Of a DNA stretch of 64,000 nt, positions 1-35,532 are shown piece after piece (position 1 is the first letter of the stretch; each line of letters starts with the position of its first letter). The position numbers and the translations under genes are program-made. Below the pieces are notes generated by a model, which was not told where the DNA came from, did not search any database, and was given only the letters and a program-made list of their open reading frames with translations. The stretch lies in NCBI RefSeq assembly GCF_030373265.1, contig NZ_JAUCZC010000007.1, forward strand, positions 65,456 through 129,455, written 5' to 3'. This DNA is from Blastomonas sp. GTDB taxonomy: Bacteria; Pseudomonadota; Alphaproteobacteria; Sphingomonadales; Sphingomonadaceae.

Positions 1-90
1 CTTCCACCAGAATGACGCAAACCTCGCGAATCCCCTCGACCCCACGGCATGGACGCGTCAGTCTCGCGCCAGAACAAACAGGGGGCATTG

Positions 91-730
91 ATGGTCGCCA
101 TCGTCCAGACCGTGGCGTATCTGGGGCTCGAGGCGCGCAGCGTCGAGGCGCAGGTGCGGATATCGCCGGGGATGAACAAGGGCATCGCGGTGGTCGGCCT
201 TCCTGACAAGGCGGTGGGTGAAAGCCGCGAACGCGTTCGCGCCGCCATCGCCTCGCTGGGTCTGGCGCTCCCTCCCAAGCGCATCACCGTCAACCTGTCG
301 CCCGCCGATCTGCCCAAGGAAGGCTCGCATTGCGATCTGCCGATCGCGCTGGCGATGCTGGCGGCGATGGGGATCATCGATGCCGAATTGGCCAGCGAAT
401 ATGTCGCGGTGGGCGAACTCGCGCTCGACGGACGGATCGCCGCCTCGCCCGGCGTATTGCTCGCCGCGCTGCACGCCTCTGCCACCGGACGCGGGTTGAT
501 CTGCCCGGCGGCGCAGGGGGCGGAAGCGGCTTGGGCGGGCGGCATCGACGTGATCGCTGCGCCCGATCTGCTGACCTTGCTCAACCACCTCAAGGGCAAT
601 GGCCGGCTCAGCCCGCCCAAGCCCGGCATCGCCGAAGCGCCCGCACCGGGCCCCGACCTCAAACAGGTCAAGGGGCAGGAGACCGCCAAGCGCGCGCTCG
701 AGATCGCGGCTGCCGGGGGCCACAACATGG
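91..730 (+). pseudogene. comM: comM/yifB (Mg-chelatase-like AAA+ competence protein), 5' fragment split by island insertion
   Basis: ORF 49..738; the likely start is ATG 91 (MVAIVQTVAYLGLEA...VVGLPDKAVGESRERVRAAI, a typical ComM N-terminus). The frame reaches AAAGGHNM, enters foreign DNA and stops at 736-738. The Walker-A half resumes at 11797. Confidence 0.85.
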
Positions 731-731
731 T
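721..731. other. attL junction core (CACAACATGGT)
   Basis: This 11-mer recurs as CACAACAGGGT at 11788-11798 (10/11 identical). The sequence to its left is comM and the sequence to its right is island DNA. Confidence 0.7.
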
Positions 732-797
732 AAGATAATATACGGTTACACCCATGAGCCGGAGCAGTCTGCAACGGCATGCTGGCAGGAGCCTAAA

Positions 798-1133
798 ATG
801 GGTCGCAAACGCAATGTATGTTATGAAGTAGTGCTTCGTGATGGTGGTGGGGGGTATTGGCTCACGATTGAGCCGCAGCACCGGACATTCTCCGATGAAT
901 TTCTCCTGAGCAAATCCGAGCTACACAGTAGGGCGGTCGCAGTCGTAAGCTCCTTAGGCACGGTCGTCCTGCGAGATGAGACAACCGAAGACGGGTCGGG
1001 TGCTGAACGAACTGGGCGCTATTTTGCTGCCCGCGCACCTTGGGCAAACAACGATTACGCCCCTCCGATCACCGATGATGAACCGACCCTCTTCGATGCT
1101 CGTCTCATGCCTGATTGGTATTATCGACGCTAA
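798..1133 (+). CDS. hypothetical protein (111 aa), first gene inside the island left end
   Basis: Internal ATG at 798 of track ORF 330..1133, preceded by AGGAG with 6-nt spacing. Sequence is MGRKRNVCYEVVLRDGGGGYWLTIEPQ... I recognise no family. Confidence 0.45.
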   Translation: MGRKRNVCYEVVLRDGGGGYWLTIEPQHRTFSDEFLLSKSELHSRAVAVVSSLGTVVLRDETTEDGSGAERTGRYFAARAPWANNDYAPPITDDEPTLFDARLMPDWYYRR

Positions 1134-1136
1134 GCA

Positions 1137-1257
1137 GGGATGCTTCGCATCCCAATTTCAAGCCCCACACCTTTGCACGCGTGCAGCCCCAATTTCCGAC
1201 GTTGTGATCGTATTGGCCTGTATTGAGTGATCCAAAACCCCTAATTTACAGGTATTG
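1137..1257 (+). other. candidate oriT / relaxosome binding region
   Basis: Intergenic region directly upstream of the RHH-T4CP-relaxase operon. It contains hairpin GGGATGC-TTC-GCATCCC (1137-1153), a perfect 12-bp palindrome TGCACGCGTGCA (1174-1185), the 9-bp direct repeat CCCAATTTC (1151-1159 and 1188-1196), and three GTATTG motifs (1210, 1220, 1252). Confidence 0.4.
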
Positions 1258-1268
1258 ACGAAATACAC

Positions 1269-1604
1269 ATGGCCGCCACCACCGTCATTCAGACCCGCAT
1301 CGTTCCGAAGCTTGCTATGCTGCTAGACAGCCGCGCCGCCGAAGCAGGGATCACACGCGCCGAGATGGTCCGCATAATGTTAGAAGCGGCGCTTGATTCC
1401 CCGCAGCCGGTTCGCGCCACAGTGACCGATCCGCTGCTAGGCGAGATCGCTGTAGAGCTGGGTGCGCTCATAGCCCGGGTAGATGCGTGCGAAACCAGCG
1501 CACACAACGCCCATGCCACCGCTCGCCTTGCTGCGCTCATGCTCCTACCCGCCGAGCGCCAGCAAGCGTTCATTGACAAGCTCAAGCAGGCCATTCGCTC
1601 ATGA
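1269..1604 (+). CDS. ribbon-helix-helix (CopG/MobC-like) relaxosome accessory protein
   Basis: 111 aa. The N-terminus TRIVPKLAMLLDSRAAEAGITRAEMVRIMLEAAL fits a beta-strand plus two-helix RHH pattern. Its stop overlaps the T4CP start (ATGA at 1601-1604). Confidence 0.6.
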   Translation: MAATTVIQTRIVPKLAMLLDSRAAEAGITRAEMVRIMLEAALDSPQPVRATVTDPLLGEIAVELGALIARVDACETSAHNAHATARLAALMLLPAERQQAFIDKLKQAIRS

Positions 1605-3412
1605 GCCGTGCGACTGAACAGGCGGGGCGTGGCCATGCCATCGAGAAATGGCGCTTGCGTTCGACGCTCATTCTGTTGCGCACAGGCGTAGCCTTCAGCC
1701 TGCTGGGCATGGTGAGCGGTGTAACGTTGGTCGGCCTCGCATCAAACGATACAGACCGCCAGCACGCAATCTCATTCACGAAAGCTAAAGCCTCACAGCA
1801 TCTGGATGCTGCCATACAGATTGATCCCCGTCGTTCCGTTGCAGCGCCCACAGTTCTAAATAGAGACGCGCCGGAGCGTATCGCTGCGGTCCGACTCTTC
1901 TCGCGAATGGCCATAGCTGGCGGCCTCCTCGGACTTCTGCTCGGCATTGGTGGGGTTACGCTTTTGCGGGGCCACTGGATTAAGGCGGCCCAACACGCAG
2001 CTCTCGATCAAGTGCTGCGCGGCAACCGGGTCGCGACCGCCGATGAGCTCACGAGGCTTGTCATGAAGAACAAGCCGTCAGAACCTTTGCGCATCGGAGG
2101 GGTGCCAATCCCGCCGCAAGACGAGGCTCGGCATTTCTTGGACATTGGTAAATCGGGCACCGGCAAAACCAGCGTCTTGCAAGATCATCTCAGCCAGATC
2201 GTAGCCCGCGGAGAAAATGCACTAATCTTCGATCCGGATGGCAGCTACGTTGAACGCTTCTTCCAACCCGAACGCGGCGATATAATTCTGAATCCTTGGG
2301 ACGGACGCAGCCATCGCTGGAACATGCTCGCCGACATCGCCAGCTTGGACGATGCCCACCGCATCGCCGCCATCTTGCTCCCCAAGCCCTCGAAAGTTGG
2401 CGAAAGCAATTTCTGGTTCGATCAAGCCCGAGCCCTGCTGGCCCATATCCTAGATCATACGGCCCACACTGAGTCCGCAAGTTTGGATGCGCTCTCCTCT
2501 ATCCTTAACACCACCACCGCTGAAGATTTGCGCACGATCGTGACTAACACGGCGGCAGCCCGCATTTTCGAGTCGGGGGGTGAACGAGCCACCGCTAGCG
2601 TTCTGTTTATGATGACAATGGCCGCCCGCACCGTCGCAACGCTAGCCACCATCCCGGAGAACGCACCTACCTTCAGCTTCGACTGCTTTTACGCTGGCCT
2701 CGCCGAACATGAAGGCCCGAAGCCAATGATTTTCTTGGCGGTACCGCGTCGATATCGCGACGCTGGCGGACCTATAATTGCGGCGTGGATAGATGCGGCA
2801 GCGTCGGCCATCCTTCAGCGCAACCCCGGAGACGCGCCAAAGGCTTGGTTGTTTCTGGACGAGTTAGCTTCACTCCCTCCGGTCCAATCCTTGCTCACTC
2901 TGCTACCAGAAGGCCGCAAGCACCGAGCCTGCGTCGTCATCGCCTTTCAGTCTATCGCGCAGCTGAGACAGACGTATGGCAATGACGGCGCGGAAATCAT
3001 TTCCGGCCAAACCGCCACCCAGTTCATTATGGCACCGGGCGATGCGGCAACTGCTAAGTGGGCTGTCGATCTATTCGGCTCGGCTGAGGTTGAGACCCAA
3101 CGCGCCAGCGAATCCCTGGGTGACGACCCCAAAGCGCACGGGTCACTTGCCATCCACCGCGAGCGCAAAGCCATTGTTATGGACAGCGAAGTCACCAACC
3201 TCGCCACCGGCGAAGGCTTCCTGCGTCTGTCAGGCTACCCAATCGCTCAAGTGCTGATCGCGCCGCCTAAAGCCCTGGACATTATTGCGCCAGCCTTTGT
3301 TCCTGCGCGCCTAACTCCCCGCACCTGTTCAACTTCGTCCTGCAGCGCACCACCCGTGGACGCAGTTCGGATAGAGGACCGCGATGACTGGTTGTCGATG
3401 GGAGGGCTATGA
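1601..3412 (+). CDS. type IV coupling protein (TraG/TraD/VirD4 family)
   Basis: 603 aa with two N-terminal TM segments, Walker A GKSGTGKTS and Walker B-like WLFLDELASLP. It is translationally coupled to the relaxase gene. Confidence 0.8.
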   Translation: MSRATEQAGRGHAIEKWRLRSTLILLRTGVAFSLLGMVSGVTLVGLASNDTDRQHAISFTKAKASQHLDAAIQIDPRRSVAAPTVLNRDAPERIAAVRLFSRMAIAGGLLGLLLGIGGVTLLRGHWIKAAQHAALDQVLRGNRVATADELTRLVMKNKPSEPLRIGGVPIPPQDEARHFLDIGKSGTGKTSVLQDHLSQIVARGENALIFDPDGSYVERFFQPERGDIILNPWDGRSHRWNMLADIASLDDAHRIAAILLPKPSKVGESNFWFDQARALLAHILDHTAHTESASLDALSSILNTTTAEDLRTIVTNTAAARIFESGGERATASVLFMMTMAARTVATLATIPENAPTFSFDCFYAGLAEHEGPKPMIFLAVPRRYRDAGGPIIAAWIDAAASAILQRNPGDAPKAWLFLDELASLPPVQSLLTLLPEGRKHRACVVIAFQSIAQLRQTYGNDGAEIISGQTATQFIMAPGDAATAKWAVDLFGSAEVETQRASESLGDDPKAHGSLAIHRERKAIVMDSEVTNLATGEGFLRLSGYPIAQVLIAPPKALDIIAPAFVPARLTPRTCSTSSCSAPPVDAVRIEDRDDWLSMGGL

Positions 3413-6219
3413 TGGTAGCTAAGCCCATCAAACTCACCGACCCCGCTGCGGCTTATAATTATTATCAGGCCGACGATTATTGGAGCCGCGAAGCTGCAGG
3501 CCAGTGGAAGGGTCGCGCTGCGCGGGCCCTCGGTTTAGAAGGGGAAGTCGACCCCGACCAATTCATGAGCCTGCTCAAGGGGCAGTTGCCAAATGGCACC
3601 CAGATCGGCACTAGCCGCAAAGGCGTGCGCGAGCATACCCCGGGTTTCGACCTCACCATGAGTGCACCCAAGTCAGTATCGGTAATAGGGCTAGTCGCGG
3701 GTGACCGCCGAGTCATCGACGCACATGCTCGCGCGGTCGATGTTGCTCTAGGATATGCCGAACGTCATATCGGCGTTACCCGTATTCGCAATGGGGAGAC
3801 GGTCGAGCGGATCGCTACGGAGAAGCTGGCCATCGCGCAATTTTTGCACGTAACCGCCCGCGAAACCGAAAACGGCACGCCTGCGCCGCAGATCCATTCG
3901 CACAACGTCATCCTAAACATGACTCAGGACTGTGACAGCAACTGGCGCAGCCTTGATGCACGTGACCTCTATCGCCTCCAGAAGCACATTGGCGCGGTCT
4001 ACCATATGGAACTTGCAGCCGAATTGCGGCAGCTTGGCTACAGCGTAATCGTCGCGCCCGATACCACCTTTGAGATTGATGGCGTGCCCGAGCATGTGTT
4101 ACGCGCCTTCTCGCCCCGGTCCCGTCAGATCGAGGCCGCCTTGGCCGCACGAGGGCAGACCCGCGCCAATGCATCAGCAGCCGAGAAGAGCGTCATTGCG
4201 CTGAAAACCCGCGCACCCAAGCGAACTGTCAATTATGCCACGCTCGCCGCCACTTGGCGCACCCAAGCCGATGAACTAGGACTCGACGAAGACGCCCGCC
4301 GTGCCCTCGTCGATGCAGCCGAAGCCCAAGCGGTCGGCAGACCCAATCTGGGCACAATCCGACGCATGGCCGAAGCAGACAAGGCCGTTTCTTTCGCCAT
4401 GGCCAAGCTCTCCGAGCGCCAGGCAGTGTTCACTGCAGCCGATCTTGAACGTGAAGCAGGGCAAAAAGCTAGCGGCGCTGCAACTCATGGTGATGTGGTC
4501 GCCGCCATCGCTCGAGCCGAGCGAAAACAGGCCCTTATGGTTCGTGCCGCCCCTCGCATGGCAAAGGGCATTGTAGGCTATACAACCCGCGAGGCCGTCA
4601 TCACGGAACAGGCAATGCTCGCGATGGAGACGGAAGGACGCGAAACTGGCAAGCCGATAGTTGGACTGGTTAGGGCTGAGGCCGCTATCGCATCGGCTGA
4701 GCGCCGTTCAGCCCACGCTTGGACCGAGGGACAAAAGGTGGCAACTCGGCAGTTGCTCCTGTCCTCGTCCGCCGTCACTGGCCTGCAGGGCCATGCCGGA
4801 ACTGCCAAGACGACAACCGTTTTAAAGACGGTCGCCGAAGCAGCACGCACCCAAAAGAAAACGGTGCGCGCTCTTGCCCCCACCGCAACGGCTGCCGATG
4901 TATTAGGTCGCGCGATCAAGGCGGAACCTACAACGGTCGCGAGGATGCTATCCCATTCAAGTGAATTGTCCGAACCAGGTACCGAGGTCTGGATCGTGGA
5001 CGAAGCTTCTATGCTGTCAGCGCGCGATGCCCGGCGCCTAATTGCCCGCGCCCGCGATGCTAAGGCTAAACTAATTCTGGTTGGCGATGTCGAACAGCTC
5101 GGCTCGGTGGAGGCAGGGCGCGCATTTGGGCAGCTTCGAGAAGCGGGCATGGAAACGGCCGTGATGGACGAGATCGTGCGCCAATCAAATCACCACACCC
5201 GGAAGGCAGTCGAGGCCATGCTGGCAGGCGATGCCTCGGCGGCTTTCGATGCGCTCGACGCTGGCGGTGGGTCGATAGTCGAGCATGAAGAAGACGATGT
5301 GCGCCATGCGCTGATGGCGAGGGATTTTGTCAAGCTGTCGCCTGAGGAGCGCGCGGCCACTATAGTCTTGGACACAACCCGCGAGGGCAGGCAGCGACTC
5401 ACGGCATCAATAAGATTTGCCCTAGTTAGAGACGGCACACTCGGAGAGCAGGCCATGATCGCGAAGGTGCTAGAGCCTGTTGGTTTCACCCGCGCCGAAG
5501 CGCGCAACGCTGCAAGCTATCAGCCAGGGCAGATCGTGACGTTCCGTAAAGGGGCCGGTAAAGGGCAGCCGCGCCCCGGCATCGGATATAAGGTGGACGC
5601 TGTTGATGCCGACGCCGGAACCGTGCGGCTGATTGGCGAGAAGGACACGCCGATCATCTGGTCACCGGCGATGTCAGGCGGCGATAGGGCTGAAGCTTTC
5701 GTTGAAGTTGAACAGGAATTCCGTGCTGGTGACCGCATACAGTTCACCCGCAACAACTATACTGCCAATCGACTCAACGGCCACACTGCTACGGTGGTAG
5801 AACTTGATCCCATCGGCGGCTCGATGGTTGTAGAGCGGCAGCGCGATGGAAAGCTCCAGCGGCTCGACCTGCATCATTTGGCCGATCGCTATGTCCGTCA
5901 TGGTTGGGTGCAGACCATCCACGCCGCCCAAGGGGCAACCTCTGACCGGGTTATGGCGCATATGGAGTCTTTCCGGACCAACACTGTGGACACTCGAGCC
6001 GCCTACGTCGCCATTAGCCGGGCGAGGTCCTATGCAGTGCTCTACACCGATAGCAGGGCCAAACTCGCGCAAGCTCTCGGCTCGCGAGACGTTGCGCAAG
6101 TGGGAGCGATCGATGAATTGGATACTACGAAAGGCCAGTTAAAAGACGCTGCTCGAAAAAGCGCCGAAATTTCTTACACAACGAACAAGCCAACGTTTAA
6201 CGAGGCATATTCAGTTTGA
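3409..6219 (+). CDS. MOBF-type conjugative relaxase with C-terminal RecD-like helicase (TrwC/TraA family)
   Basis: 936 aa. The N-terminus is a TrwC-like relaxase domain (AAAYNYYQADDYW, histidine motif PQIHSHNVILN). The helicase part has GHAGTAKTT Walker A and VWIVDEASML Walker B. Confidence 0.85.
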   Translation: MMVAKPIKLTDPAAAYNYYQADDYWSREAAGQWKGRAARALGLEGEVDPDQFMSLLKGQLPNGTQIGTSRKGVREHTPGFDLTMSAPKSVSVIGLVAGDRRVIDAHARAVDVALGYAERHIGVTRIRNGETVERIATEKLAIAQFLHVTARETENGTPAPQIHSHNVILNMTQDCDSNWRSLDARDLYRLQKHIGAVYHMELAAELRQLGYSVIVAPDTTFEIDGVPEHVLRAFSPRSRQIEAALAARGQTRANASAAEKSVIALKTRAPKRTVNYATLAATWRTQADELGLDEDARRALVDAAEAQAVGRPNLGTIRRMAEADKAVSFAMAKLSERQAVFTAADLEREAGQKASGAATHGDVVAAIARAERKQALMVRAAPRMAKGIVGYTTREAVITEQAMLAMETEGRETGKPIVGLVRAEAAIASAERRSAHAWTEGQKVATRQLLLSSSAVTGLQGHAGTAKTTTVLKTVAEAARTQKKTVRALAPTATAADVLGRAIKAEPTTVARMLSHSSELSEPGTEVWIVDEASMLSARDARRLIARARDAKAKLILVGDVEQLGSVEAGRAFGQLREAGMETAVMDEIVRQSNHHTRKAVEAMLAGDASAAFDALDAGGGSIVEHEEDDVRHALMARDFVKLSPEERAATIVLDTTREGRQRLTASIRFALVRDGTLGEQAMIAKVLEPVGFTRAEARNAASYQPGQIVTFRKGAGKGQPRPGIGYKVDAVDADAGTVRLIGEKDTPIIWSPAMSGGDRAEAFVEVEQEFRAGDRIQFTRNNYTANRLNGHTATVVELDPIGGSMVVERQRDGKLQRLDLHHLADRYVRHGWVQTIHAAQGATSDRVMAHMESFRTNTVDTRAAYVAISRARSYAVLYTDSRAKLAQALGSRDVAQVGAIDELDTTKGQLKDAARKSAEISYTTNKPTFNEAYSV

Positions 6220-6220
6220 T

Positions 6221-6350
6221 ACGCCTGTGTAGATTAATTTGACGGCCCGCTCCTGCCGTCATTTAACCCGACCGCCGGTTGATACGGAAATCGAGATGGC
6301 GCTTGTGTGTGGGCTGCCAACAGCCATTTGGTTTGAGCGGAGCGCCAATT
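6221..6350 (-). ncRNA. candidate structured ncRNA downstream of the dual-RT operon (possible DRT3-type ncRNA)
   Basis: On the minus-strand RNA an outer stem GGCGCU/AGCGCC (6298-6303 pairs with 6341-6346) encloses hairpin GGCUG-UUGG-CAGCC (6312-6325). An unpaired CACACACA tract follows (6304-6311). Further hairpins follow, including GACGGC...GCCGUC (6241-6260). No ORF is present. Confidence 0.4.
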
Positions 6351-8429
6351 TCAATATACGTCACGACTACGCTTCGCGTCCAGTTCCTTTGTGAGATCAA
6401 ATTTGTCGCCCCAGGCCGTGAACCAATGACTGTTGACCGCCTGAAGCTCTGCCAACTGAGCGGCATCCAAACCGAAGATGGCACCCGCAGAATTTTGAGT
6501 AGCGACCGACACGTAAGGACAAACAACTAGGTCCAGAAATAGCATCAAAGCCTCAGCATCATTTGGACAATGCGTCTTGACAAAATCGAGCTTCGCAAGA
6601 GCCTGAGCTTCAATAAAGGCGCGAAGTTTTGCATACCTCACTTTATTCTTTACGTATGACAAGAGAACGGTGATTGAAAAGTGATTTAAAAATTTCTCGC
6701 GCAGATAAACTCCCGATTTCTCATCCCATTTTATAAGGAAGTGGCTAGCTACAGCCTCTTCCGGAAGCCAATATTCGCGACCAATTCCAGATAGCACTAT
6801 CAGCAGATACAAGCTCTCAATCTCTCTGTGAGAACTCATTTTATTCTTAGCCAGCATCTCGCGAATATTATCATGCACGAATTTGAAAAGCAGATGCTTG
6901 AGCTCATGAGGAAACTGACGACTGGTTAAAAAACCGACTGCTGTCGCCACCATTCGACACATTCTAATAGTATGATTCACTTTCGGACTTGCTGAATAAG
7001 CAAAGAACGAAAACTCGAGAAGAGCTATAATAGCATTTACCATTCGGCGGCGATCAATGTGATCCCCATCACTAGCCAAATAAGCCCCGATAATTATGTC
7101 AACTTTGTTTTCAATAATTGCGAACGTGTAATTCAATAGATCAGAGTATTCTACTTTCGACTCTTTTATTACTGTCTTGTAACCAACAATTAATCGATTG
7201 GCGTTTAAATTACAGCTAAATCTCTTAACAATCTCGCCCCCAGTATCACTATTATCGGTCTCTTCCACAGACGGGTCAATAACTGAATTCATCAAGGTCG
7301 AAATATGCTCTTTCGCAATTGTAATTTCAGTTATTATGGGCTTAGGATATACTTTTAACTTTGCGGGATTTATCGCTAATTTTTTCGATTTCAAAATTTC
7401 TTGAAGCTCCTCAATGACGTGAAGCTCCGTCGATTTATCATTATAGAAAACAAAAAAATCATCGACGTATCGGAAAATCTCATAATGGCTTTTGTGCTTT
7501 AAATTTGCCCGATCGAAAAGAGCGCGCTCCAGTTCAACGTCAACAGACTGAAGAATGATTTCGGCAAATATTCTAGAGAATTCCGGGCCTATTACAATTC
7601 CATTAGTCTCATTCTGATTTAGCTGCTGCATCACAGCATCAAAACGACCGCCAAACGTAGATTTTGATCCATCGAGATTAAACTTCGTCTGATTTTTTCC
7701 CATTACAGCCCAAGGCATTGAATGGGTGTAAATGCTATCAAAGCATTTACTTATATCTATCTGCATCATTGCGTCATATTTTTTTTCGCAACGATGATAT
7801 TTATAGGATTCAAAAAACTTGTGTATATTACGATATTTTTGATATACAAAATAGGAACCGATCTGCTCGTATTCCCGGCCATATTCTTCTACCCCGCCTG
7901 AGATACTTTCAAGATCTTGGTCGTGAAGCTTGTCCTTAAAGAATGCATATCGCGATACTGAAACTGGTCGACGAATAGAAAAGGAGCTTAGCGATGTATA
8001 ATATGTGATCATCGCACTGTGGCGAGCATAAAATTCGGCAATACGAACCTGATTACGCGGATGAACAACACTAAGAGTCCGCCCCTCAATTTTATGCGCA
8101 ACCCGAAAATTAAATGGTATTGTTTCCATTCTGCAGGATTTTAACGGCACACTGCGGCGAGTTATTGGCTTAACAGCCCCCCACTCTTTCTGTGTAGTTG
8201 TTTCCACGACAACATTTTTCTTTACGCCGAATATTAGCTTGATGGTTCTTTCCAGGCCAGGCCCGCGATCTATCCATCGAACCCGGCCGTCCTCGATCTC
8301 AACCTTATGATCCCGTAAAAATGCAAAAAATCCGCGATTTGTGAAAGTTGGTGGAACTTCGAACGGCAGCATATCGGTCATCACTGCACGCTGCCTACGG
8401 TGCGTTAGAGCTACACTTCGTTTAGACAT
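6351..8429 (-). CDS. reverse transcriptase, large (692 aa), Drt3b/UG8-like or AbiA-like defence RT
   Basis: RT palm motifs QIDISKCFDSIYTH, GIVIGPEFSRIFAEIIL, IFRYVDDFFVFYND (catalytic YVDD) and KLAINPAKLKVY, plus a long C-terminal alpha-helical extension. N-terminus has LPFEVPPTFTNRGFF. AT-rich. Its start overlaps the upstream RT gene stop by 8 nt. Confidence 0.8.
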   Translation of the reverse strand: MSKRSVALTHRRQRAVMTDMLPFEVPPTFTNRGFFAFLRDHKVEIEDGRVRWIDRGPGLERTIKLIFGVKKNVVVETTTQKEWGAVKPITRRSVPLKSCRMETIPFNFRVAHKIEGRTLSVVHPRNQVRIAEFYARHSAMITYYTSLSSFSIRRPVSVSRYAFFKDKLHDQDLESISGGVEEYGREYEQIGSYFVYQKYRNIHKFFESYKYHRCEKKYDAMMQIDISKCFDSIYTHSMPWAVMGKNQTKFNLDGSKSTFGGRFDAVMQQLNQNETNGIVIGPEFSRIFAEIILQSVDVELERALFDRANLKHKSHYEIFRYVDDFFVFYNDKSTELHVIEELQEILKSKKLAINPAKLKVYPKPIITEITIAKEHISTLMNSVIDPSVEETDNSDTGGEIVKRFSCNLNANRLIVGYKTVIKESKVEYSDLLNYTFAIIENKVDIIIGAYLASDGDHIDRRRMVNAIIALLEFSFFAYSASPKVNHTIRMCRMVATAVGFLTSRQFPHELKHLLFKFVHDNIREMLAKNKMSSHREIESLYLLIVLSGIGREYWLPEEAVASHFLIKWDEKSGVYLREKFLNHFSITVLLSYVKNKVRYAKLRAFIEAQALAKLDFVKTHCPNDAEALMLFLDLVVCPYVSVATQNSAGAIFGLDAAQLAELQAVNSHWFTAWGDKFDLTKELDAKRSRDVY

Positions 8430-9771
8430 GCCGCCAAGCCTTTACAATTACCTTAAGCTCATCTGCGCTAAAATTATGAAATCGTCGCTGCTCGAATCCA
8501 GATTTAAACCGATACCGGTTCAATGAATTCCTCAGTTTCGGCCGCTTTATCTTTAAGATCTGCTTTTTTAGCAGTGTATCTAGAGGATCGTATTTTTTTA
8601 GATTTGTGATAATTGGACTATTATAGTATATGCCAGTTGTCGCGCTCGACTTACTATTCTTCAATCGCGCGTTTCCTGTCAGAAATTTCAACCTAGCTAC
8701 GATCTCGCGGTAGGCCTGACGTTGTCTCGTGGGAACGTCCCGCCAATACTCGGCGAATGCGGCATCAACCCTACTCCTCAGTCTCTCAATCTTTGCATCA
8801 CTGGGCTCAATTTCTAGTGTTCTCAATGTTGCTGTATAACTGTAACCAAGATAATCAAACTTCTTTGGAGGACCCTTGTCTCCCAAATTAAAATCTTGCG
8901 TCTTTTTTACGTTGTTGGTCAAACTATGCTTATTAAGTATCTCTAGCACCAAGTCCTTGTAACTTCCGCTAGCTGCACCGACCGGAGGCCTTGCAAAAAC
9001 TGCAAAAATGTCATCCACATAGCGGCAGTAGAGGACAGCTCCAGGTAACTCTCTGATAGCTCGGTCAACGGGTCGGAGAAATAGCTCGGCCAAATAGGCG
9101 CTAATACCCACACCGCGGGGAATTCCTTTTGGGCTACCGCTGATTTTCCCGTAGGAGGTAAATATCTGACGGATGAATCGCTTGGACGATGAACTCAGCA
9201 ATTGATCGCTATCGAGTGCTCTATATAGCTTATCTCGATCAATGCTCTCGTAGAATTCAGAAACGTCTGTCCGGACAAATTCGAATGGAAATCCCGTTCC
9301 AATCGTATCACGAACGCGACACGCAAGTTCATGCCGATTTGACTGCTTAACTTTATAAATACGATAGATATTCCACTGCAGCTGCTTCACCACAAAGAAC
9401 GTTTCAGCTGTGCTATCGATGCAGTAGACGGGCTTTCCATTCGGCCCGGTCTTTTGAGAGAGCGTCAATCTAAATTCAGGCTTGGCGACCTCAGCGCTGA
9501 GCTTTTCCATCTCGACATCGACGGCATTCGACTTCGTGGCTTTCAATTCGGCAAGCTCGGCCTTTATTTTCGACTCTGCCGTCTCAAATACCGAAGCAAC
9601 CAAGGATGCTTTGCCCTTCCTCAATTTTCTGAGTTCGGCAACCTTATCTCGAACAGCACCAGTCATTGGGCAAAGATGCGGAAAGTATCTGCCGACGACA
9701 TCCAGCCCCTTGCGATTTTCCCTGTCGAATATTCGCCGGAAATTTTCGGCCGTGAACATCTGATCTAGCAA
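8422..9771 (-). CDS. reverse transcriptase, small (449 aa), Drt3a/UG3-like defence RT
   Basis: RT motifs RTDVSEFYESIDRDKL, GIPRGVGISAYLAELFL, LYCRYVDDIFAVFA (YVDD) and FDYLGYSY. Track start is TTG at 9771, with GGGGGA about 8 nt upstream. An alternative ATG lies at 9759 (MFTAENFRRIF). Confidence 0.8.
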   Translation of the reverse strand: MLDQMFTAENFRRIFDRENRKGLDVVGRYFPHLCPMTGAVRDKVAELRKLRKGKASLVASVFETAESKIKAELAELKATKSNAVDVEMEKLSAEVAKPEFRLTLSQKTGPNGKPVYCIDSTAETFFVVKQLQWNIYRIYKVKQSNRHELACRVRDTIGTGFPFEFVRTDVSEFYESIDRDKLYRALDSDQLLSSSSKRFIRQIFTSYGKISGSPKGIPRGVGISAYLAELFLRPVDRAIRELPGAVLYCRYVDDIFAVFARPPVGAASGSYKDLVLEILNKHSLTNNVKKTQDFNLGDKGPPKKFDYLGYSYTATLRTLEIEPSDAKIERLRSRVDAAFAEYWRDVPTRQRQAYREIVARLKFLTGNARLKNSKSSATTGIYYNSPIITNLKKYDPLDTLLKKQILKIKRPKLRNSLNRYRFKSGFEQRRFHNFSADELKVIVKAWRHV

Positions 9772-10043
9772 CTAGCCGTCCCCCATAATATCACGGCTTT
9801 TAACCGCCGTTCGGCCCTTAGTCTCCACGCATACGCTGCCATGCTCGAATAAGGGACGCCAGCTAAATACACATTTCCCGTCAGATTGAAGTCAGTTTCC
9901 CCGGGAGCCACCCGGAAGCTAGCTGAATGTCAAAAAGTGAGATGGCGCCCCTCACAGCCAGCCGCACTTGCAGCGATCGGCGCGAGCCCTCTGGCTCCAG
10001 GCTTTAGCCCTGGATTTCTGTAAGCACCGCTAGCCGTTTCTGA

Positions 10044-11756
10044 TCACGTGTCTTCCCGCCTTGCTGACCTGCGAGCAGCCAGCCCCTTTTGGAGGACGCC
10101 CTTTATGGTCCGTAGCTGACGCGGGCTTAGGCCTTCGCGTGACAATCGCCGTCCGCTCACGTAAAAATCTAGCGCAATACTCGTCGTTTTCGCGTCGATC
10201 ACGACCGTCCGAACACCTGATTTAAAACGAATGCCGACCCTTCGGGCTTTGTGATGGAAACTCATTTTTTCAACTAATTCGGAGATAGCCACGCGAACTA
10301 TAGACCGCGCCGGAAATCTAACATTCTCATCAGAGGAGTGGATTTCGTTTCTCAATACTTCAATTCGTTTTGCGTGCTCATCTGGCGAAACAGCGCCGCG
10401 CGCTTGAACGAGCGATGCGTTCAAATGGGCAATGAGCCCCTCTTGCGCATCGAACAATTCGATCATTTTCTTGTATTTTTCCAGCGTTTCTTCACGTCGC
10501 ATGCTAATATGCGTCTCAAGCGCGCTATCTGCGCGAGCACGTAGTCGTTCGAGTTCTAATTTTGCTATGGCGCAATCATGTGCAATATTGGCAGCTTGAC
10601 GCGGTGCGGCAAAATGAGCGTCACCAACAGCATCTGAAAGAATCGCATTGAGCACGCCTTGTTCGACTGACGAGTAATTGAACCGAACGTTATTCTTACA
10701 TTTGCCTCCGTGGTCTTGAATAATGCCGCGCTGCATCGCATCGCAGACAAGATAGTCCTCGTAAACGACACGACTATCTGCCCGCTTCTTCTGCCCTTTT
10801 GATCTTAAGGTCATCTTAGCACCGCACCCAGCACAGTATGCCAGGCCAGAAAAGAGATTAGCCAGGCGCCGACCCTGCCCCATATTTAGCCGAGCCTTAT
10901 CTTGCATACTAACCCTCGCACGGGCGTAGAGGTCGGCGCTGATAATCGCGGGGTAATAGTTTTTAATAGGGTCGCCAACTAGTGAACGTTTGCCACTACC
11001 CGACTTCTTGCCTAGTTGAAATTCACCTAGCACGGCTACGTTGTTCAATATCTTTTGAATGTAAGAAGCATGCCAAGCCTGTGATTTTCCAAACGTTGGC
11101 ACCTCCTCTTCGTTCAAACGGCGTGCAATATGATGCTTCCCAAACCCTTGCGCTGTCTCTTCGAAGATACGGACAACGACCTGCGCACGGTCTGCAATAA
11201 TTTTGAAACCCTTTCGTCCCTCACCCACGAGCAACCAAGCCGGCGCTCTGGACGTGAGGATGACATTCTCGCCAGCAAGAATCCGCGCACGCTTGTCGTC
11301 CCATGACGCTGTAATGCGCTCACTCTTTTTCAACGACTCGCGGTGAGCAAGATCGGCCTTGACCACCAGCTCGATTATGGTCGCCATGTCGAGATTATCT
11401 TGCCGATATTGTCGGTCCCCCTCGACGGTTGCTACGATCACCCCGAGGCTTGTGATTTGCTCCAACCAAGTGAAGACCTTTTTCGGCTCTTCTCGGGATA
11501 GGCGGTCCAGGTTCTCGACCAGCAACACGACCCCGTCTTTGAATTCCCCATCCTCTATTCGGGCCTGAATATGCGACATTTTGCCTGCCCGCCGGTGTCC
11601 TCCAGTGAATGCCGAAACCCCCTCCTCTATGATCTCCTCGACAATTTTCCACCCACGCACGCTTGCATGCTCGCGGCACCTTTCGAGCTGGCGGACCTTG
11701 GATGAACCGGCTGACTGTTCTGCACTGGACCAGCGCACATATAGTATGGTATTCAT
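10044..11756 (-). CDS. large serine recombinase (island integrase)
   Basis: Track ORF 10044..11924 runs across attR into comM antisense. The real start is ATG at 11756 (MNTILYVRWSSAEQSAGSS, resolvase catalytic-Ser motif). A recombinase domain, Cys-rich zinc-ribbon region (CAGCGAKM...) and coiled-coil tail follow. Confidence 0.85.
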   Translation of the reverse strand: MNTILYVRWSSAEQSAGSSKVRQLERCREHASVRGWKIVEEIIEEGVSAFTGGHRRAGKMSHIQARIEDGEFKDGVVLLVENLDRLSREEPKKVFTWLEQITSLGVIVATVEGDRQYRQDNLDMATIIELVVKADLAHRESLKKSERITASWDDKRARILAGENVILTSRAPAWLLVGEGRKGFKIIADRAQVVVRIFEETAQGFGKHHIARRLNEEEVPTFGKSQAWHASYIQKILNNVAVLGEFQLGKKSGSGKRSLVGDPIKNYYPAIISADLYARARVSMQDKARLNMGQGRRLANLFSGLAYCAGCGAKMTLRSKGQKKRADSRVVYEDYLVCDAMQRGIIQDHGGKCKNNVRFNYSSVEQGVLNAILSDAVGDAHFAAPRQAANIAHDCAIAKLELERLRARADSALETHISMRREETLEKYKKMIELFDAQEGLIAHLNASLVQARGAVSPDEHAKRIEVLRNEIHSSDENVRFPARSIVRVAISELVEKMSFHHKARRVGIRFKSGVRTVVIDAKTTSIALDFYVSGRRLSREGLSPRQLRTIKGVLQKGLAARRSARREDT

Positions 11757-11787
11757 TTGTAACGATTTATCATAAGGAGTAGCTTGA

Positions 11788-11798
11788 CACAACAGGGT
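11788..11798. other. attR junction core (CACAACAGGGT)
   Basis: Partner of 721-731. The sequence to its right is comM, with GTG ATG GTC GGG CCG CCG encoding VMVGPPG. Confidence 0.7.
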
Positions 11799-12669
11799 GA
11801 TGGTCGGGCCGCCGGGCGCGGGCAAGTCGCTGATGGCCTCGTGCCTTCCTGGCATTCTGCCACCGCTGACCCCGGAAGAGGCACTCGAAGTCTCGATGGT
11901 CGCATCGGTCGCAGGCACGCTCACCGACGGCCGGATCAGCCGCGCGCGCCCGTTCCGCGCGCCCCATCACAGCGCCTCGATGGCGGCACTGGTCGGCGGT
12001 GGGCTCAAGGTGCGCCCGGGTGAGGTCAGCATGGCGCATCTGGGCGTGCTGTTCCTCGACGAACTGCCCGAGTTTCAACGCACCGTGCTCGATTCGCTGC
12101 GCCAGCCGCTCCAGACCGGCGAGGTCAGCGTCGCGCGCGCCAATGCGCACGTCACCTTTCCGGCGCGGGTGCAGATGATCGCAGCGATGAACCCGTGCCG
12201 TTGCGGGCACCTGGGTGATCCGGCGCTCGGCTGCTCGCGCGCGCCGCGCTGCGCTGCCGACTATCAGGCCAAGGTGTCGGGCCCGCTGCTCGACCGCATC
12301 GACCTGCATGTCGAGGTCGAGGCGGTGACCGCTGCCGACCTGACCCTGCCCCCGCCCGCCGAGGGCTCGGCCGAAGTCGCCGCCCGCGTCGCCGCCGCCC
12401 GCGCGCTGCAGACCGCGCGCTACGCCGATATCAAGGCGCGCACCAATGCCGAGATCGACGGCGAGGCGCTGGAGCGGTTCGCGACCCCGGATGAGCCAGC
12501 GCGGCAGCTATTGGCCCGCGCCGCCGAAGCGATGCGGCTCTCGGCGCGGGGGTATACGCGGGTGTTGAGAGTAGCGCGCACAATCGCGGATTTAAGCGGC
12601 GCGGAAACTGTGGGCCGGGTGCAGGTGGCGGAGGCTTTGAGTTATCGGCGAAGGGCGCCGGTGGGGTGA
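11797..12669 (+). pseudogene. comM/yifB 3' fragment (AAA+ ATPase and C-terminal domains)
   Basis: Starts directly with (V)MVGPPGAGKSLMA Walker A. Further motifs are GVLFLDELPEF Walker B and the C-terminal ARGYTRVLRVARTIADL, all typical of ComM/YifB. It has no N-terminal domain of its own. Confidence 0.85.
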
Positions 12670-12697
12670 GGCAGCGGAGCCCCCCGACCCCGCTGCC
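12670..12697. terminator. hairpin between convergent comM and bdhA
   Basis: GGCAGCGG-(12 nt)-CCGCTGCC, an 8-bp stem located between two stop codons. Confidence 0.45.
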
Positions 12698-12708
12698 GTC
12701 GTCGCATG

Positions 12709-13491
12709 TTACTGCGCAGTCCAGCCGCCATCGACGGGAATCGCGGTGCCGGTGATTTGCGCTGCCGCTTCGCTCGAGAGGAACGCGGCGAGTTCGCCCA
12801 TCTGTTCGGGGGTGGCGAACTGCTTGCTCGGCTGCTTTTCGATCAGCAGCTTTTCGGTCGCGGCTTCCACGCTGATGCCCTGGTCGGCCGCCATCGCCTC
12901 GATCTGCTTCTGCACCAGCGGGGTGTGAACCCAGCCGGGGCAGATGGTGTTGCTGGTGATCCCGGTGCCGGCGTTCTCAAGCGCGACGACCTTGCTGAGG
13001 CCGACGACGCCATGCTTGGCCGCGACATAGGCCGCCTTGTGCTTGCTGGCGATCAGGCCGTGCACCGATCCGATGTTGATGATGCGGCCGAAGCCCTTGG
13101 CCTTCATGTGCGGGAGGGCCGCCTGGATGGCGAAGAAGATGCCCGACAGGTTGATCGCAATCACCGCATTCCATTTGTCCGCGGGAAAGTCCTCGACCGC
13201 GTCGGTGTGCTGGATGCCGGCGTTGTTGACGAGGATGTCGACCGAGCCCAGCTTTTCGACGCACAATTCGACCATCGCCTTGACATCATCGGGCTTGGAC
13301 ATGTCGGCGTTGCTGTAGACGACCTCGACGCCATATTTGGCGGCGAGGCCGGCGCGCTCCTTTTCTATTTCATCGGCATCGCCGAAGCCGGTGATGACCA
13401 GATTGGCACCCTTGGACGCCAGAACATTGGCGATGCCCAGACCAATTCCACTGGTCGAGCCGGTGACGACGGCATTCAGTCCCTTAAGCAT
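12709..13491 (-). CDS. bdhA: D-3-hydroxybutyrate dehydrogenase (SDR family)
   Basis: 260 aa with GSTSGIGLGIA cofactor motif, SVHGLIASKHKAAYVAAKHGVVGLSKV catalytic region, ICPGWVHTPLV, and a C-terminal DGGWTAQ as in characterised BDHs. Confidence 0.85.
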   Translation of the reverse strand: MLKGLNAVVTGSTSGIGLGIANVLASKGANLVITGFGDADEIEKERAGLAAKYGVEVVYSNADMSKPDDVKAMVELCVEKLGSVDILVNNAGIQHTDAVEDFPADKWNAVIAINLSGIFFAIQAALPHMKAKGFGRIINIGSVHGLIASKHKAAYVAAKHGVVGLSKVVALENAGTGITSNTICPGWVHTPLVQKQIEAMAADQGISVEAATEKLLIEKQPSKQFATPEQMGELAAFLSSEAAAQITGTAIPVDGGWTAQ

Positions 13492-33825: not shown

Positions 33826-35532
33826 TCAGCGTAGGGCAGTGAGGTTGCCCTGATTGCGCCAGCGGCCGACAACACGGGCGACCATCTCCTCTTCGCCGCC
33901 GTGCTGACACCACAACGTGCTGAACAGTGGATCGTCCGATGCCGGGCGGCGGGCCTCGGCCAGATCGTCGAACGACACGCGAATCGGGATCGACACGCCC
34001 TCGCCGCAAATGATGCACTCACGGTTGCGCAGCGCGGGGATCGAATCGAGAAAGCCACGTGCCCCTTCGGGCATCGCCGAGCGGACATGCGCCTGGTCGC
34101 GGTCGTTGTTCAAACGCATCGCGATGATGGTGCCACACTGCGACAGCACCCCTTCGGAAAGATCGGACGGACGCTGGGTGATCAGGCCGAGCGATACGCC
34201 GTATTTGCGGCCCTCCTTGGCGATGCGGCTGAGCACATTGCGCACCGCGCTGTGTTCGAGCACCCGGTCGGAAGGAATGTAGCGGTGCGCCTCTTCGCAC
34301 ACCAGCAGCACCGGGGTGATCTTGTCCTTGCGGCTCCAGATCGCAAAGTCGAACACCATACGGCTGAGAACGGCGACAACCGTCGAGGTAATGTCGGAAG
34401 GAACGCCGGACACATCGATGATCGAGATCGGCTTGCCATCGGCGGGCAGGCGGAAAATCCTGCCGATGAAGTCGGCCATATTGTCCCCAACTAGCATGCC
34501 GGAGAACATGAAGCTGTAGCGCGGATCGGCCTTGATCTCCTCGATCTTGCCCTTGATCCGCAGGAACGGCGCGCTCGATGTCGCCTTGTCCAGCCTGCCC
34601 ATCTCGTTCTGGATGTTGGCGACAAGGTCGGACAGCATATAAGGAATGGGGGTATCGACCGTCACGCGCGAGGCGCCCTGCGCCGCCCTGCCCTTCAGCC
34701 GCGCGGTCAGCAGGCACTTGGCCAGAATTTCGGCATCGGTCTGCCGCTCGGCGCCCGAGGAGGTGAGGAACACCTCGCAATGCTCCTCGAAATTCATCAG
34801 CCAATAGGGCATCGACAGATTGCCGACATCGAACAGCGCGCCATTTTCGGCAAAGGCAGTGGAATACTCGCCATGGGGATCGACCATCACGATATGGCCT
34901 TCGGGCATCATATCGCAGATGCGGTGAAGGATCAGCGCGGCAGCGGTCGATTTTCCGGTGCCTGTGGACCCAAGCAGTGCAAAGTGCTTGCTCAGCAGCG
35001 CGTCAACATACAGTGCCCCGCGGGTGTCCAGGGTCGGATAGACCGTTCCCACCTCGATATGCGGACGGGCATCGGCAGCGTAGACCTGTTTCAGGTCGGC
35101 GCTGGTCATCGCGAAGAGCGGCGTTCCGGGGACCGGATAGCGTGTCACCCCGCGCCGGAAGTTGAAGATTCGCCCGGTCAGCTTTTCCTCTTCGCCCTCG
35201 CCGAGAAAATCGATCTGGCAGACGATCAGTCCGGCTTCGCGCTGGTGCATCCGCTGCGTGCGGACATTGGCCACCAGCCAGCGTGCACCCATGCGGATCT
35301 TGACCTGGCTACCCACCTGGCCTGCCATCGACACGCTGGGATCCTTGTGCGTCATCAGCGTGGCAAGGCGACTGGCATCGAGCAGCACCTGCGAGCTCGA
35401 CCCGGCAATTTCGATGACCTCGCCGATCTTGAGATGCTCGACAGGACGGTGGACCGTCCGCTCCAGCGAGGGAAGGTCGGCAGGGTCGGCTGGTGCGCGA
35501 TCCTGGAAATTGCGGGGATTAAGTTCAACCAT
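33826..35532 (-). CDS. HerA-like/DUF87 P-loop ATPase
   Basis: 568 aa with an N-terminal barrel-like region, Walker A LLGSTGTGKST and Walker B PVLLVCEEAHRYI. Its stop abuts the queE stop. Confidence 0.7.
   Translation of the reverse strand: MVELNPRNFQDRAPADPADLPSLERTVHRPVEHLKIGEVIEIAGSSSQVLLDASRLATLMTHKDPSVSMAGQVGSQVKIRMGARWLVANVRTQRMHQREAGLIVCQIDFLGEGEEEKLTGRIFNFRRGVTRYPVPGTPLFAMTSADLKQVYAADARPHIEVGTVYPTLDTRGALYVDALLSKHFALLGSTGTGKSTAAALILHRICDMMPEGHIVMVDPHGEYSTAFAENGALFDVGNLSMPYWLMNFEEHCEVFLTSSGAERQTDAEILAKCLLTARLKGRAAQGASRVTVDTPIPYMLSDLVANIQNEMGRLDKATSSAPFLRIKGKIEEIKADPRYSFMFSGMLVGDNMADFIGRIFRLPADGKPISIIDVSGVPSDITSTVVAVLSRMVFDFAIWSRKDKITPVLLVCEEAHRYIPSDRVLEHSAVRNVLSRIAKEGRKYGVSLGLITQRPSDLSEGVLSQCGTIIAMRLNNDRDQAHVRSAMPEGARGFLDSIPALRNRECIICGEGVSIPIRVSFDDLAEARRPASDDPLFSTLWCQHGGEEEMVARVVGRWRNQGNLTALR

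Follow-up and report, generated by a model that had tools for sequence, protein, structure and literature searches.

A putative integrative mobilizable element with a DRT3 cargo interrupts comM in a Blastomonas sp. genome

In a 64-kb stretch of Blastomonas sp. DNA (henceforth referred to as the window, that is, the whole stretch analysed) the coding sequence of the Mg-chelatase-like protein YifB/ComM is broken at codon 212/213, and its two parts lie some 11 kb apart. This raises the question of what the intervening DNA is, how it came to lie within comM and whether it could leave the gene intact again. A first-pass annotation of the window had proposed that comM is split by an ~11.1-kb element and that nothing of the gene is missing, such that precise excision would restore it. 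The insert measures 11,067 bp, counted between equivalent junction positions, and we consider it very probable that it constitutes an integrative mobilizable element (IME) that integrated into comM by means of its own large serine recombinase (LSR), would be mobilized by its own relaxase via a helper and carries a DRT3 system as cargo.

The interrupted comM gene and its empty site

The two parts of the gene are:

91..731, + strand: comM (yifB) 5' part, codons 1-212 and two bases of codon 213; Pfam ChlI 4.8e-36
11797..12669, + strand: 3' part of comM, from Walker A on, with the AAA+ and C-terminal domains; Mg_chelatase 6e-79, Mg_chelatase_C 2.5e-29 (both Pfam)

With the element present, the left open reading frame (ORF; 49/91..738) ends in ...AAAGGHNMVR*, with its stop at 736-738, and matches ChlI and positions 1-26 of the Pfam Mg_chelatase model, and the right ORF (11797..12669) begins with VMVGPPGAGKS and matches positions 26-206 of Mg_chelatase followed by Mg_chelatase_C. 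Since the two Mg_chelatase matches abut exactly (left to 26, right from 26), the break is exact relative to the domain model. ComM is truncated after its N-terminal ChlI/Lon-like domain, and comM is inactive while the element is present. The base composition also changes at the insert, from a G+C fraction of 0.65-0.72 in the flanks to 0.56-0.62 in the left half of the insert, 0.38-0.47 in its two reverse-transcriptase genes and 0.49-0.56 in the recombinase gene. Together with the domain halves, the repeat at the junctions described below and the alignment to an uninterrupted relative, this bears out the proposal that an ~11.1-kb element splits the gene.

To compare the gene with intact orthologues, as the first-pass annotation had recommended, the comM halves were joined in silico and genomes were scanned, one per species. 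Among the best 80 loci, ~75 held full-length alphaproteobacterial orthologues collinear with the joined ComM, those of the best Sphingomonadaceae at 74-81% identity. In a protein search the joined product of 503 amino acids was 97% identical, with 0 gaps, to the intact YifB/ComM of B. fulva (P0121, 503 amino acids), which reads AAAGGHNMVM(T)GPPGAGKS at the junction. The DNA of the empty site in B. fulva reads GGGGGGCACAACATGGTGATGACCGGG, including CACAACATGGTGATG; the alignment of the window with this site ends at position 731 on the left side (88% nucleotide identity for the comM 5' part) and resumes at position 11788 on the right (86.5%). As no bases are missing or duplicated relative to this empty site, precise excision would rebuild comM, as had been proposed. 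Of the two forms suggested earlier for the rebuilt join, GGHN(M/R)VMV, the one with M stands as the native form found in B. fulva; the one with R was rejected because the B. fulva empty site has M and no orthologue has Arg there.

The proposed survey of relatives for occupied and empty comM returned both kinds, the empty sites being those of B. fulva (L165 and L166) and of Blastomonas sp. CACIA14H2 (L057). At the CACIA14H2 locus (positions 5770-10075) the LSR site is empty and comM is split ~90 bp downstream (window ~11878-11887) by a 4.3-kb IS1595-family transposon. This transposon has a transposase gene (7852-8808), perfect inverted repeats of 27 bp at its ends (CGGCATTATGTAGCAAATGCACCAAGG), a target duplication of 8 bp (GAAGCGCT) and three uncharacterised passenger ORFs. 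Because comM is irreversibly inactivated in this strain, loss of ComM is tolerated in the genus. A further difference lies downstream of the gene: one B. fulva locus (L165, 4562-5941, corresponding to window ~12670) has an extra gene for a 459-amino-acid DUF6438/ankyrin protein in the interval between comM and a short-chain dehydrogenase gene, which the window lacks.

Junctions and the likely crossover dinucleotide

The sequence CACAACA(T/G)GGT, reported earlier at both junctions, is indeed found there and nowhere else: CACAACANGGT is present twice in the window, at 721-731 and 11788-11798, where 0.02 matches would be expected by chance and where two copies occurred in 0/100 shuffles. The attachment sites are:

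721..731, + strand: attL core CACAACATGGT; inferred crossover dinucleotide G730-T731 (G729-G730 possible)
11788..11798, + strand: attR core CACAACAGGGT; 11788-11795 derived from the element (end of the attP arm GTAGCTTGACACAAC), inferred crossover at G11797-T11798

The first-pass annotation had placed the crossover inside CACAACA. The base 3' of CACAACA is T at attL, G at attR and T in the B. fulva empty site, and the codon after GGHN specifies L, M, V or I, never R, in all orthologues in which the motif was found. Since the empty site has T at this position and no orthologue encodes Arg there, G11795 is derived from the element, and the crossover therefore falls on the right-hand side of the T/G mismatch, inside G729-G730-T731. 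The attP arm GTAGCTTGACACAAC is kept in four elements from different hosts (the window and attR of three relatives), and on the host side, at attL, the related locus L084 has CATAAT; these two observations indicate that CACAAC at attR terminates an attP arm which is conserved and imitates the codons of the host, and that it is no duplicated target.

We then compared attL with attR in each of several elements, numbering the bases after AAC. In the window the two sites have positions 1, 3-5 and 7 in common; for L084 the common positions are 2-7, for L119 they are 3-5 and for L152 3-4. The intersection for the window, L084 and L119 is a 3-nt core, positions 3-5, which corresponds to G729 G730 T731. 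Dyad symmetry of attB peaks at position 4-5 (GT), with 15/24 complementary pairs compared to at most 9 elsewhere, and that of the L084 attP peaks at the same position (CT), with 14/24 compared to at most 10 elsewhere. The dinucleotide at position 4-5 is GT in the window and CT in the relatives, both non-palindromic, and that at position 3-4 is the palindrome GC in L084 and L119. As the symmetry peaks at 4-5 and a crossover at 3-4 would use a palindromic GC in the relatives, GT at 730-731 / 11797-11798 is most likely the crossover dinucleotide and GG at 729-730 is a possible alternative. Three points weigh against choosing GT: the choice is based on symmetry and on avoidance of a palindromic GC in relatives; the attP of the window itself is weakly symmetric, with 9/24 at position 4, tied with two other positions; and in L152, a distant relative, attL and attR agree at positions 3-4 (GA) only, in keeping with GG at 729-730 and not with GT. 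The placement of the crossover inside CACAACA is contradicted by the origin of the T/G mismatch, the conserved attP arm, the CATAAT of L084, the core shared across elements and the dyad symmetry.

From these junctions attB can be reconstructed as ...GGC CAC AAC ATG/GTG ATG GTC... and attP as ...GTAGCTTGACACAACAGG/GTAAGATAATATACGGTTACACC... (slash, point of joining); the predicted junction sequences are ...GGGGGCCACAACATGGTGATGGTCGGG... for attB and ...GTAGCTTGACACAACAGGGTAAGATAATATACGG... for attP. A scan for sigma-70 promoters and terminators gave no interpretable signal at the junctions.

Recombinase family, transfer module and cargo

Between its junctions the element holds eight ORFs and two conserved non-coding stretches. 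The gene next to the right junction is the only recombinase gene of the element:

10044..11756, - strand: large serine recombinase (integrase), 570 amino acids; Pfam Resolvase, Recombinase and Zn_ribbon_recom

The protein has the domain order of an LSR (PF00239 1.1e-15, PF07508 2.3e-14, PF13408 5e-9), and its catalytic R8 and S10, within YVRWSSAEQ, are invariant among 19 homologues. It is identical to an NCBI entry from a metagenome-assembled genome, 'recombinase family protein [Blastomonas sp.]', and its relatives at 30-73% identity number in the hundreds, many being assigned to Sphingomonadaceae by their sources. Its best solved relative is the YokA/SprA integrase of SPbeta. A phage origin was considered and rejected, the best matches among deposited phages being at most 27% identical.

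To see where such recombinases lie, we surveyed 83 loci of the LSR family from public assemblies and metagenomes, 70 of which were evaluable. A comM fragment broken at residues 205-232 adjoins the LSR gene in at least 50 of these 70 loci, with LSRs that are 30-73% identical, and overlaps it in a few more. Two orientations were seen: in 17 loci the LSR gene adjoins the 3' part of comM, which is the arrangement of the window, and in 33 it follows immediately on the 5' part; the element arm beside the comM 5' part, AAGATAATATA...CTACACC, is alike in both. In some loci of the second orientation (L096, L108, L111 and L112) the similarity to comM reaches as far as residue 230-275 and takes in the beginning of the recombinase gene, which suggests either a slightly different junction or a comM-like stretch borne by the element. 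There is also a second LSR site in comM, near residue 26-32, in four further loci (L129, L132, L133 and L159), whose recombinases are more distant, at 31-38% identity.

The left part of the element is occupied by a transfer module:

798..1133, + strand: orf111, small conserved family-specific protein; no Pfam or PADLOC match
1134..1268, + strand: candidate origin of transfer (oriT), conserved intergenic stretch with hairpin GGGATGCttcGCATCCC, palindrome TGCACGCGTGCA and CGTATTGGCCTGTAT
1269..1604, + strand: ribbon-helix-helix (RHH)-like relaxosome accessory protein in the TrwA position; RHH_1 E=0.0064, under the curated cut-off
1601..3412, + strand: type IV coupling protein (TrwB/VirD4-like); Pfam TrwB_AAD_bind 4.1e-92 and TraG-D_C 7e-20
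3409..6219, + strand: MOBF relaxase-helicase (TrwC/TraI-like); Pfam TrwC 6.7e-80 and AAA_30 4.7e-44

The relaxase covers positions 3-285 of the 286 of the TrwC profile, contains the YNYY and HSHN motifs in its translation, as expected of the MOBF class, and matches TrwC (1omh, 7.8e-51) and TraI (5n8o, 1.8e-66) in the PDB. Weak RHH_1 matches at the same position as in the window were also found in the related elements L081 and L084. No mating-pore genes were found among the ORFs of the element, and tblastn with TrbB/C/E/J/L/F/G/I detected no Trb homologues in the 64-kb window. An element with its own LSR, a TrwC relaxase and a TrwB coupling protein and without mating-pair-formation genes is an IME, and the earlier description of the insert as an IME with relaxase, coupling protein and RHH protein agrees with the Pfam and PDB matches, the RHH match being weak. 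Membership of the PIME family (bioRxiv 2026.01.12.698999) was weighed and discarded: the account of that family speaks of a site adjacent to guaA and of IncP helpers, and contains no mention of comM, of a serine recombinase or of TrwC/MOBF.

Among plasmid relaxases the closest are the MobF proteins of sphingomonad plasmids (46-49% identity), including that of pBSY18_2 of Blastomonas sp. RAC04 (46%). There, a small ORF is followed by a coupling protein and MobF, as in the element, and a complete Trb (P-type) type IV secretion system (T4SS) adjoins them. Since a homologous DNA-transfer (Dtr) module adjoins a Trb system on this plasmid, plausible helpers exist in the genus.

The non-coding stretch between orf111 and the RHH gene is a candidate oriT. 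It is conserved in four elements whose proteins are 40-63% identical, and its hairpin appears in the centroid fold. The block lies at 1134-1268 in the window, 19778-19957 in L084, 21443-21622 in L081 and ~6110-6300 in L118, and has in common the hairpin GGATGCttcGCATCC, the palindrome GCACsCGTGC and CGTATyGsCCTGTAT. The CGTATTG within it appears to resemble the sequence just 5' of nic in the oriT of R388. In the predicted circular form the neighbouring orf111 would adjoin attP and be transcribed divergently from the LSR gene. It has 4 homologues, and is found at the same position in L084, L081 and Sphingomonas sp. Leaf357; an AF2 model of the protein has a pLDDT of 67, and gave no Foldseek match at E <= 0.001. 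orf111 is no more than a candidate excision factor.

The slot between relaxase and recombinase carries the cargo:

6222..6350, - strand: candidate DRT3 non-coding RNA (ncRNA); ACACAC template motif at 6310-6305
6351..8429, - strand: Drt3b (UG8 reverse transcriptase); PADLOC 5.8e-195, Pfam RVT_1, YVDD motif
8422..9771, - strand: Drt3a (UG3 reverse transcriptase); PADLOC 4.9e-115; the start may be at 9666 (Logan gene call, 414 amino acids)

The anti-phage cargo surmised earlier is thus identified by PADLOC as a DRT3 pair, the Drt3a and Drt3b genes overlapping on one strand, and the relaxase-integrase slot holds a low-G+C DRT3 system. In EcoDRT3 the ncRNA lies downstream of drt3b and has an ACACAC template motif (PMC13174585). 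The window has ACACAC in the 131-bp gap downstream of drt3b, on the correct strand, where it is 1 of 4 ACACAC in the 64 kb; in the minimum-free-energy structure of the candidate ncRNA the motif lies in a loop. An Rfam scan of positions 1-13000 at E <= 0.1 returned no match, the ncRNA candidate included.

The complete backbone is found again in L084, between the two comM halves, in Stakelama marina (L081), where it lies beside comM, and in L087, L082/L083 and L118. EcoRII, Vsr and a Dcm methylase with a helix-turn-helix (HTH) occupy the relaxase-recombinase slot of L081, L084 and L087 in place of DRT3; relative to the window, one defence system has been exchanged for another while the backbone is constant. 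The slot of L082 holds three unknown ORFs, and L098, a comM-targeting relative, has a Mob_Pre relaxase. In L118 (6305-9374) there is no cargo between recombinase and relaxase, extra genes (ParB_N, PRTase-CE) lie past the RHH gene, and no comM is found within 4 kb. Repeat finding across the element in the window gave only short chance families.

Elsewhere in the window, 33826-35532 (- strand) encodes a HerA-like ATPase (DUF87 5e-45), and 42729-56861 (- strand) is an ORF of 4710 amino acids whose product, a giant adhesin-like secreted protein, has a two-partner-secretion (TPS) domain, 13 MBG domains and no fewer than 18 FG-GAP repeats.

Proposed life cycle, alternatives and significance

The structure described above is read directly from the sequence, and from it we infer a life cycle each step of which is conditional. 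The insert lies in the segment of comM that encodes Walker A, where conservative recombination of attP with attB by the element's own LSR would place it, and excision, which would depend on a directionality factor (orf111 being the candidate), would restore comM exactly. The excised circle would be nicked by the TrwC-type MOBF relaxase at the oriT-like region upstream of the RHH gene, and the TrwB-type coupling protein of the element would hand the DNA to the mating pore of a co-resident conjugative element, e.g. of the Trb/P type, after which the LSR would re-insert the element into comM of the recipient. A target as highly conserved as comM would give the element a wide host range. ComM aids recombination of heterologous DNA in transformation and is needed for acquisition mediated by gene transfer agents (GTA) in Rhodobacter (PMC12378983). 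Its loss would lower recombination-mediated curing and may thereby plausibly protect the element, an argument already made for other comM insertions (PMC11472951).

Several results weigh against this life cycle. No attP junction or circular form was found, the Logan sequences representing the integrated form: an 11.4-kb Logan sequence with orf111, considered as a possible circle, was rejected as such because it matches the integrated form (100% identical to window 402-11133, the part compared), and viral contigs scanned for the attP arm GTAGCTTGACACAAC yielded only 19 hits, all of them unrelated and attributable to chance. There is no recognisable recombination directionality factor (RDF), orf111 having no informative homologue or fold, and no helper T4SS lies within the 64-kb window. 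The oriT candidate is a conserved non-coding block that folds no better than shuffles, and the same is true of the fold of the candidate ncRNA (z = -1.1).

Since the source is a metagenome-assembled genome, we considered whether the junctions are an assembly or binning artefact in which a plasmid fragment was fused to chromosomal comM. We regard this as having a negligible probability. The Logan assemblies L186 and L187, from separate sequencing runs, are 100% identical to the window over the compared stretches and both span attL, which excludes a binning chimera at the left junction; the identity holds through the element as far as compared, which for L186 means up to position 11133, short of attR, a site that L186 would reach by extrapolation from the length of its contig. 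A like architecture lies between comM halves in unrelated samples (L084 and L119), and within the reading frame of comM the two breaks meet at the exact base. That the insert is a Tn7-like, AbaR-type transposon or a self-transmissible integrative and conjugative element (ICE) is highly improbable, even though comM is the classic AbaR target (PMC11472951): no transposase genes, target-site duplication or terminal inverted repeats were found, the halves join without duplicated bases and the sole recombinase is an LSR beside the junction, and the 11 kb contain no mating-pore ORFs, nor the window Trb homologues, as an ICE would require.

A fixed, immobile remnant of a single integration, lacking excision through want of an RDF or through decayed sites and leaving comM a dead pseudogene in the lineage, is unlikely. 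The lack of any circular or attP form and of a recognisable RDF would fit such a remnant, as LSRs without an RDF do not excise (PMC12286644), as would the fact that the element with DRT3 cargo was seen in one sampling project only. However, none of the eight ORFs is truncated and each aligns with homologues over its entire length, the comM halves are undecayed, with 97% amino acid identity to the intact orthologue and no frameshift, both att arms match the family consensus, and the low-G+C cargo indicates recent turnover. The reversible switch raised in the first-pass annotation, here taken as a regulated one in which conditional excision would restore ComM before the element re-integrates, strikes us as improbable. 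Excision would be scar-free, the insertion lies inside the coding sequence and not at the gene end, and the closest solved relative of the LSR, SPbeta SprA/YokA, reconstitutes spsM, all in favour of a switch; yet no sign of excision, an RDF or a regulatory link was found, and comM of CACIA14H2 is irreversibly broken by a transposon. Moreover, comM is the commonest LSR target across bacteria and unrelated element types (PMC10083194), which is better explained by a conserved target that is safe or prevents curing.

Returning to the IME, several known systems resemble it in part. Mg-chelatase/ComM homologues are the target of 12.4% of site-specific LSRs and thereby the commonest target (Durrant et al. 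2022, PMC10083194), yifB is likewise the insertion target of LSR-borne alphaproteobacterial pipolins (PMC11551731) and phage WO uses the same gene in Wolbachia through sr1WO (PMC9203015). With these systems (PMC10083194, PMC11551731, PMC9203015) the window element shares an LSR at its edge, insertion within the coding sequence between flanking halves, a very short core and an alphaproteobacterial host. Unlike phage WO and the pipolins, with which the site was compared at the gene level, it is a small IME with a TrwABC-like module and DRT3 and is neither a phage nor a piPolB element. The AbaR/AbGRI elements (Tn6022-type) of A. baumannii likewise interrupt the Mg-chelatase domain of comM and carry accessory cargo, often defence systems in environmental strains, and lower transformation (PMC11472951); in contrast to their Tn7-like transposition with target duplication, the window element would move by conservative serine recombination, and it encodes a relaxase and a coupling protein itself. 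Insertion inside an ORF that is restored by precise excision is also known from the gene-reconstituting elements SPbeta (SprA/YokA, SprB/YotN, spsM) and skin (SpoIVCA, sigK) and the Listeria comK prophage ('active lysogeny'), which, unlike the window element as analysed here, have a known RDF and control linked to development or infection. The order of small DNA-binding protein, coupling protein and relaxase-helicase, the last in the TrwC fold family, is that of TrwA-TrwB-TrwC of R388 and of pBSY18_2, from which the element differs in being chromosomally integrated and in having no Trb/VirB mating-pore genes and no replication genes. As in EcoDRT3 (PMC13174585), there is a pair of Drt3a (UG3) and Drt3b (UG8) with ACACAC in the non-coding stretch downstream of drt3b; unlike EcoDRT3, the DRT3 of the window is a predicted defence system, carried as cargo by an IME in the slot where sister elements have EcoRII-Vsr-Dcm.

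That comM is a hotspot for islands, as the first-pass annotation noted, is already published for LSRs, pipolins and WO, and the novelty of the case was overstated. Insertions in comM that carry defence systems have been described in Acinetobacter (PMC11472951), and LSR targeting of comM, defence cargo on IMEs and inactivation of comM by mobile elements have all been published before. No published description of this backbone was found in a limited literature search. A bolder proposal, to which we assign a low probability, is that the backbone (orf111, RHH protein, coupling protein, TrwC, cargo slot and LSR) is a shuttle for defence genes in Sphingomonadales: its insertion at the Walker A segment of comM would have evolved as an anti-curing device that blocks ComM-dependent recombination of transformed or GTA DNA, and entry of a Trb-type helper would trigger excision via an unrecognised RDF such as orf111. 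If true, transient restoration of ComM would link conjugation, defence cargo and recombination proficiency. Overall, the locus opens no new question; it provides a base-precise attB/attP pair, with a likely crossover dinucleotide, for a comM-specific serine integrase of Alphaproteobacteria, which is of use in annotating such islands, adds a further case of mobile elements that disable comM, and documents a small IME backbone whose slot exchanges defence systems (DRT3 versus EcoRII-Vsr-Dcm).

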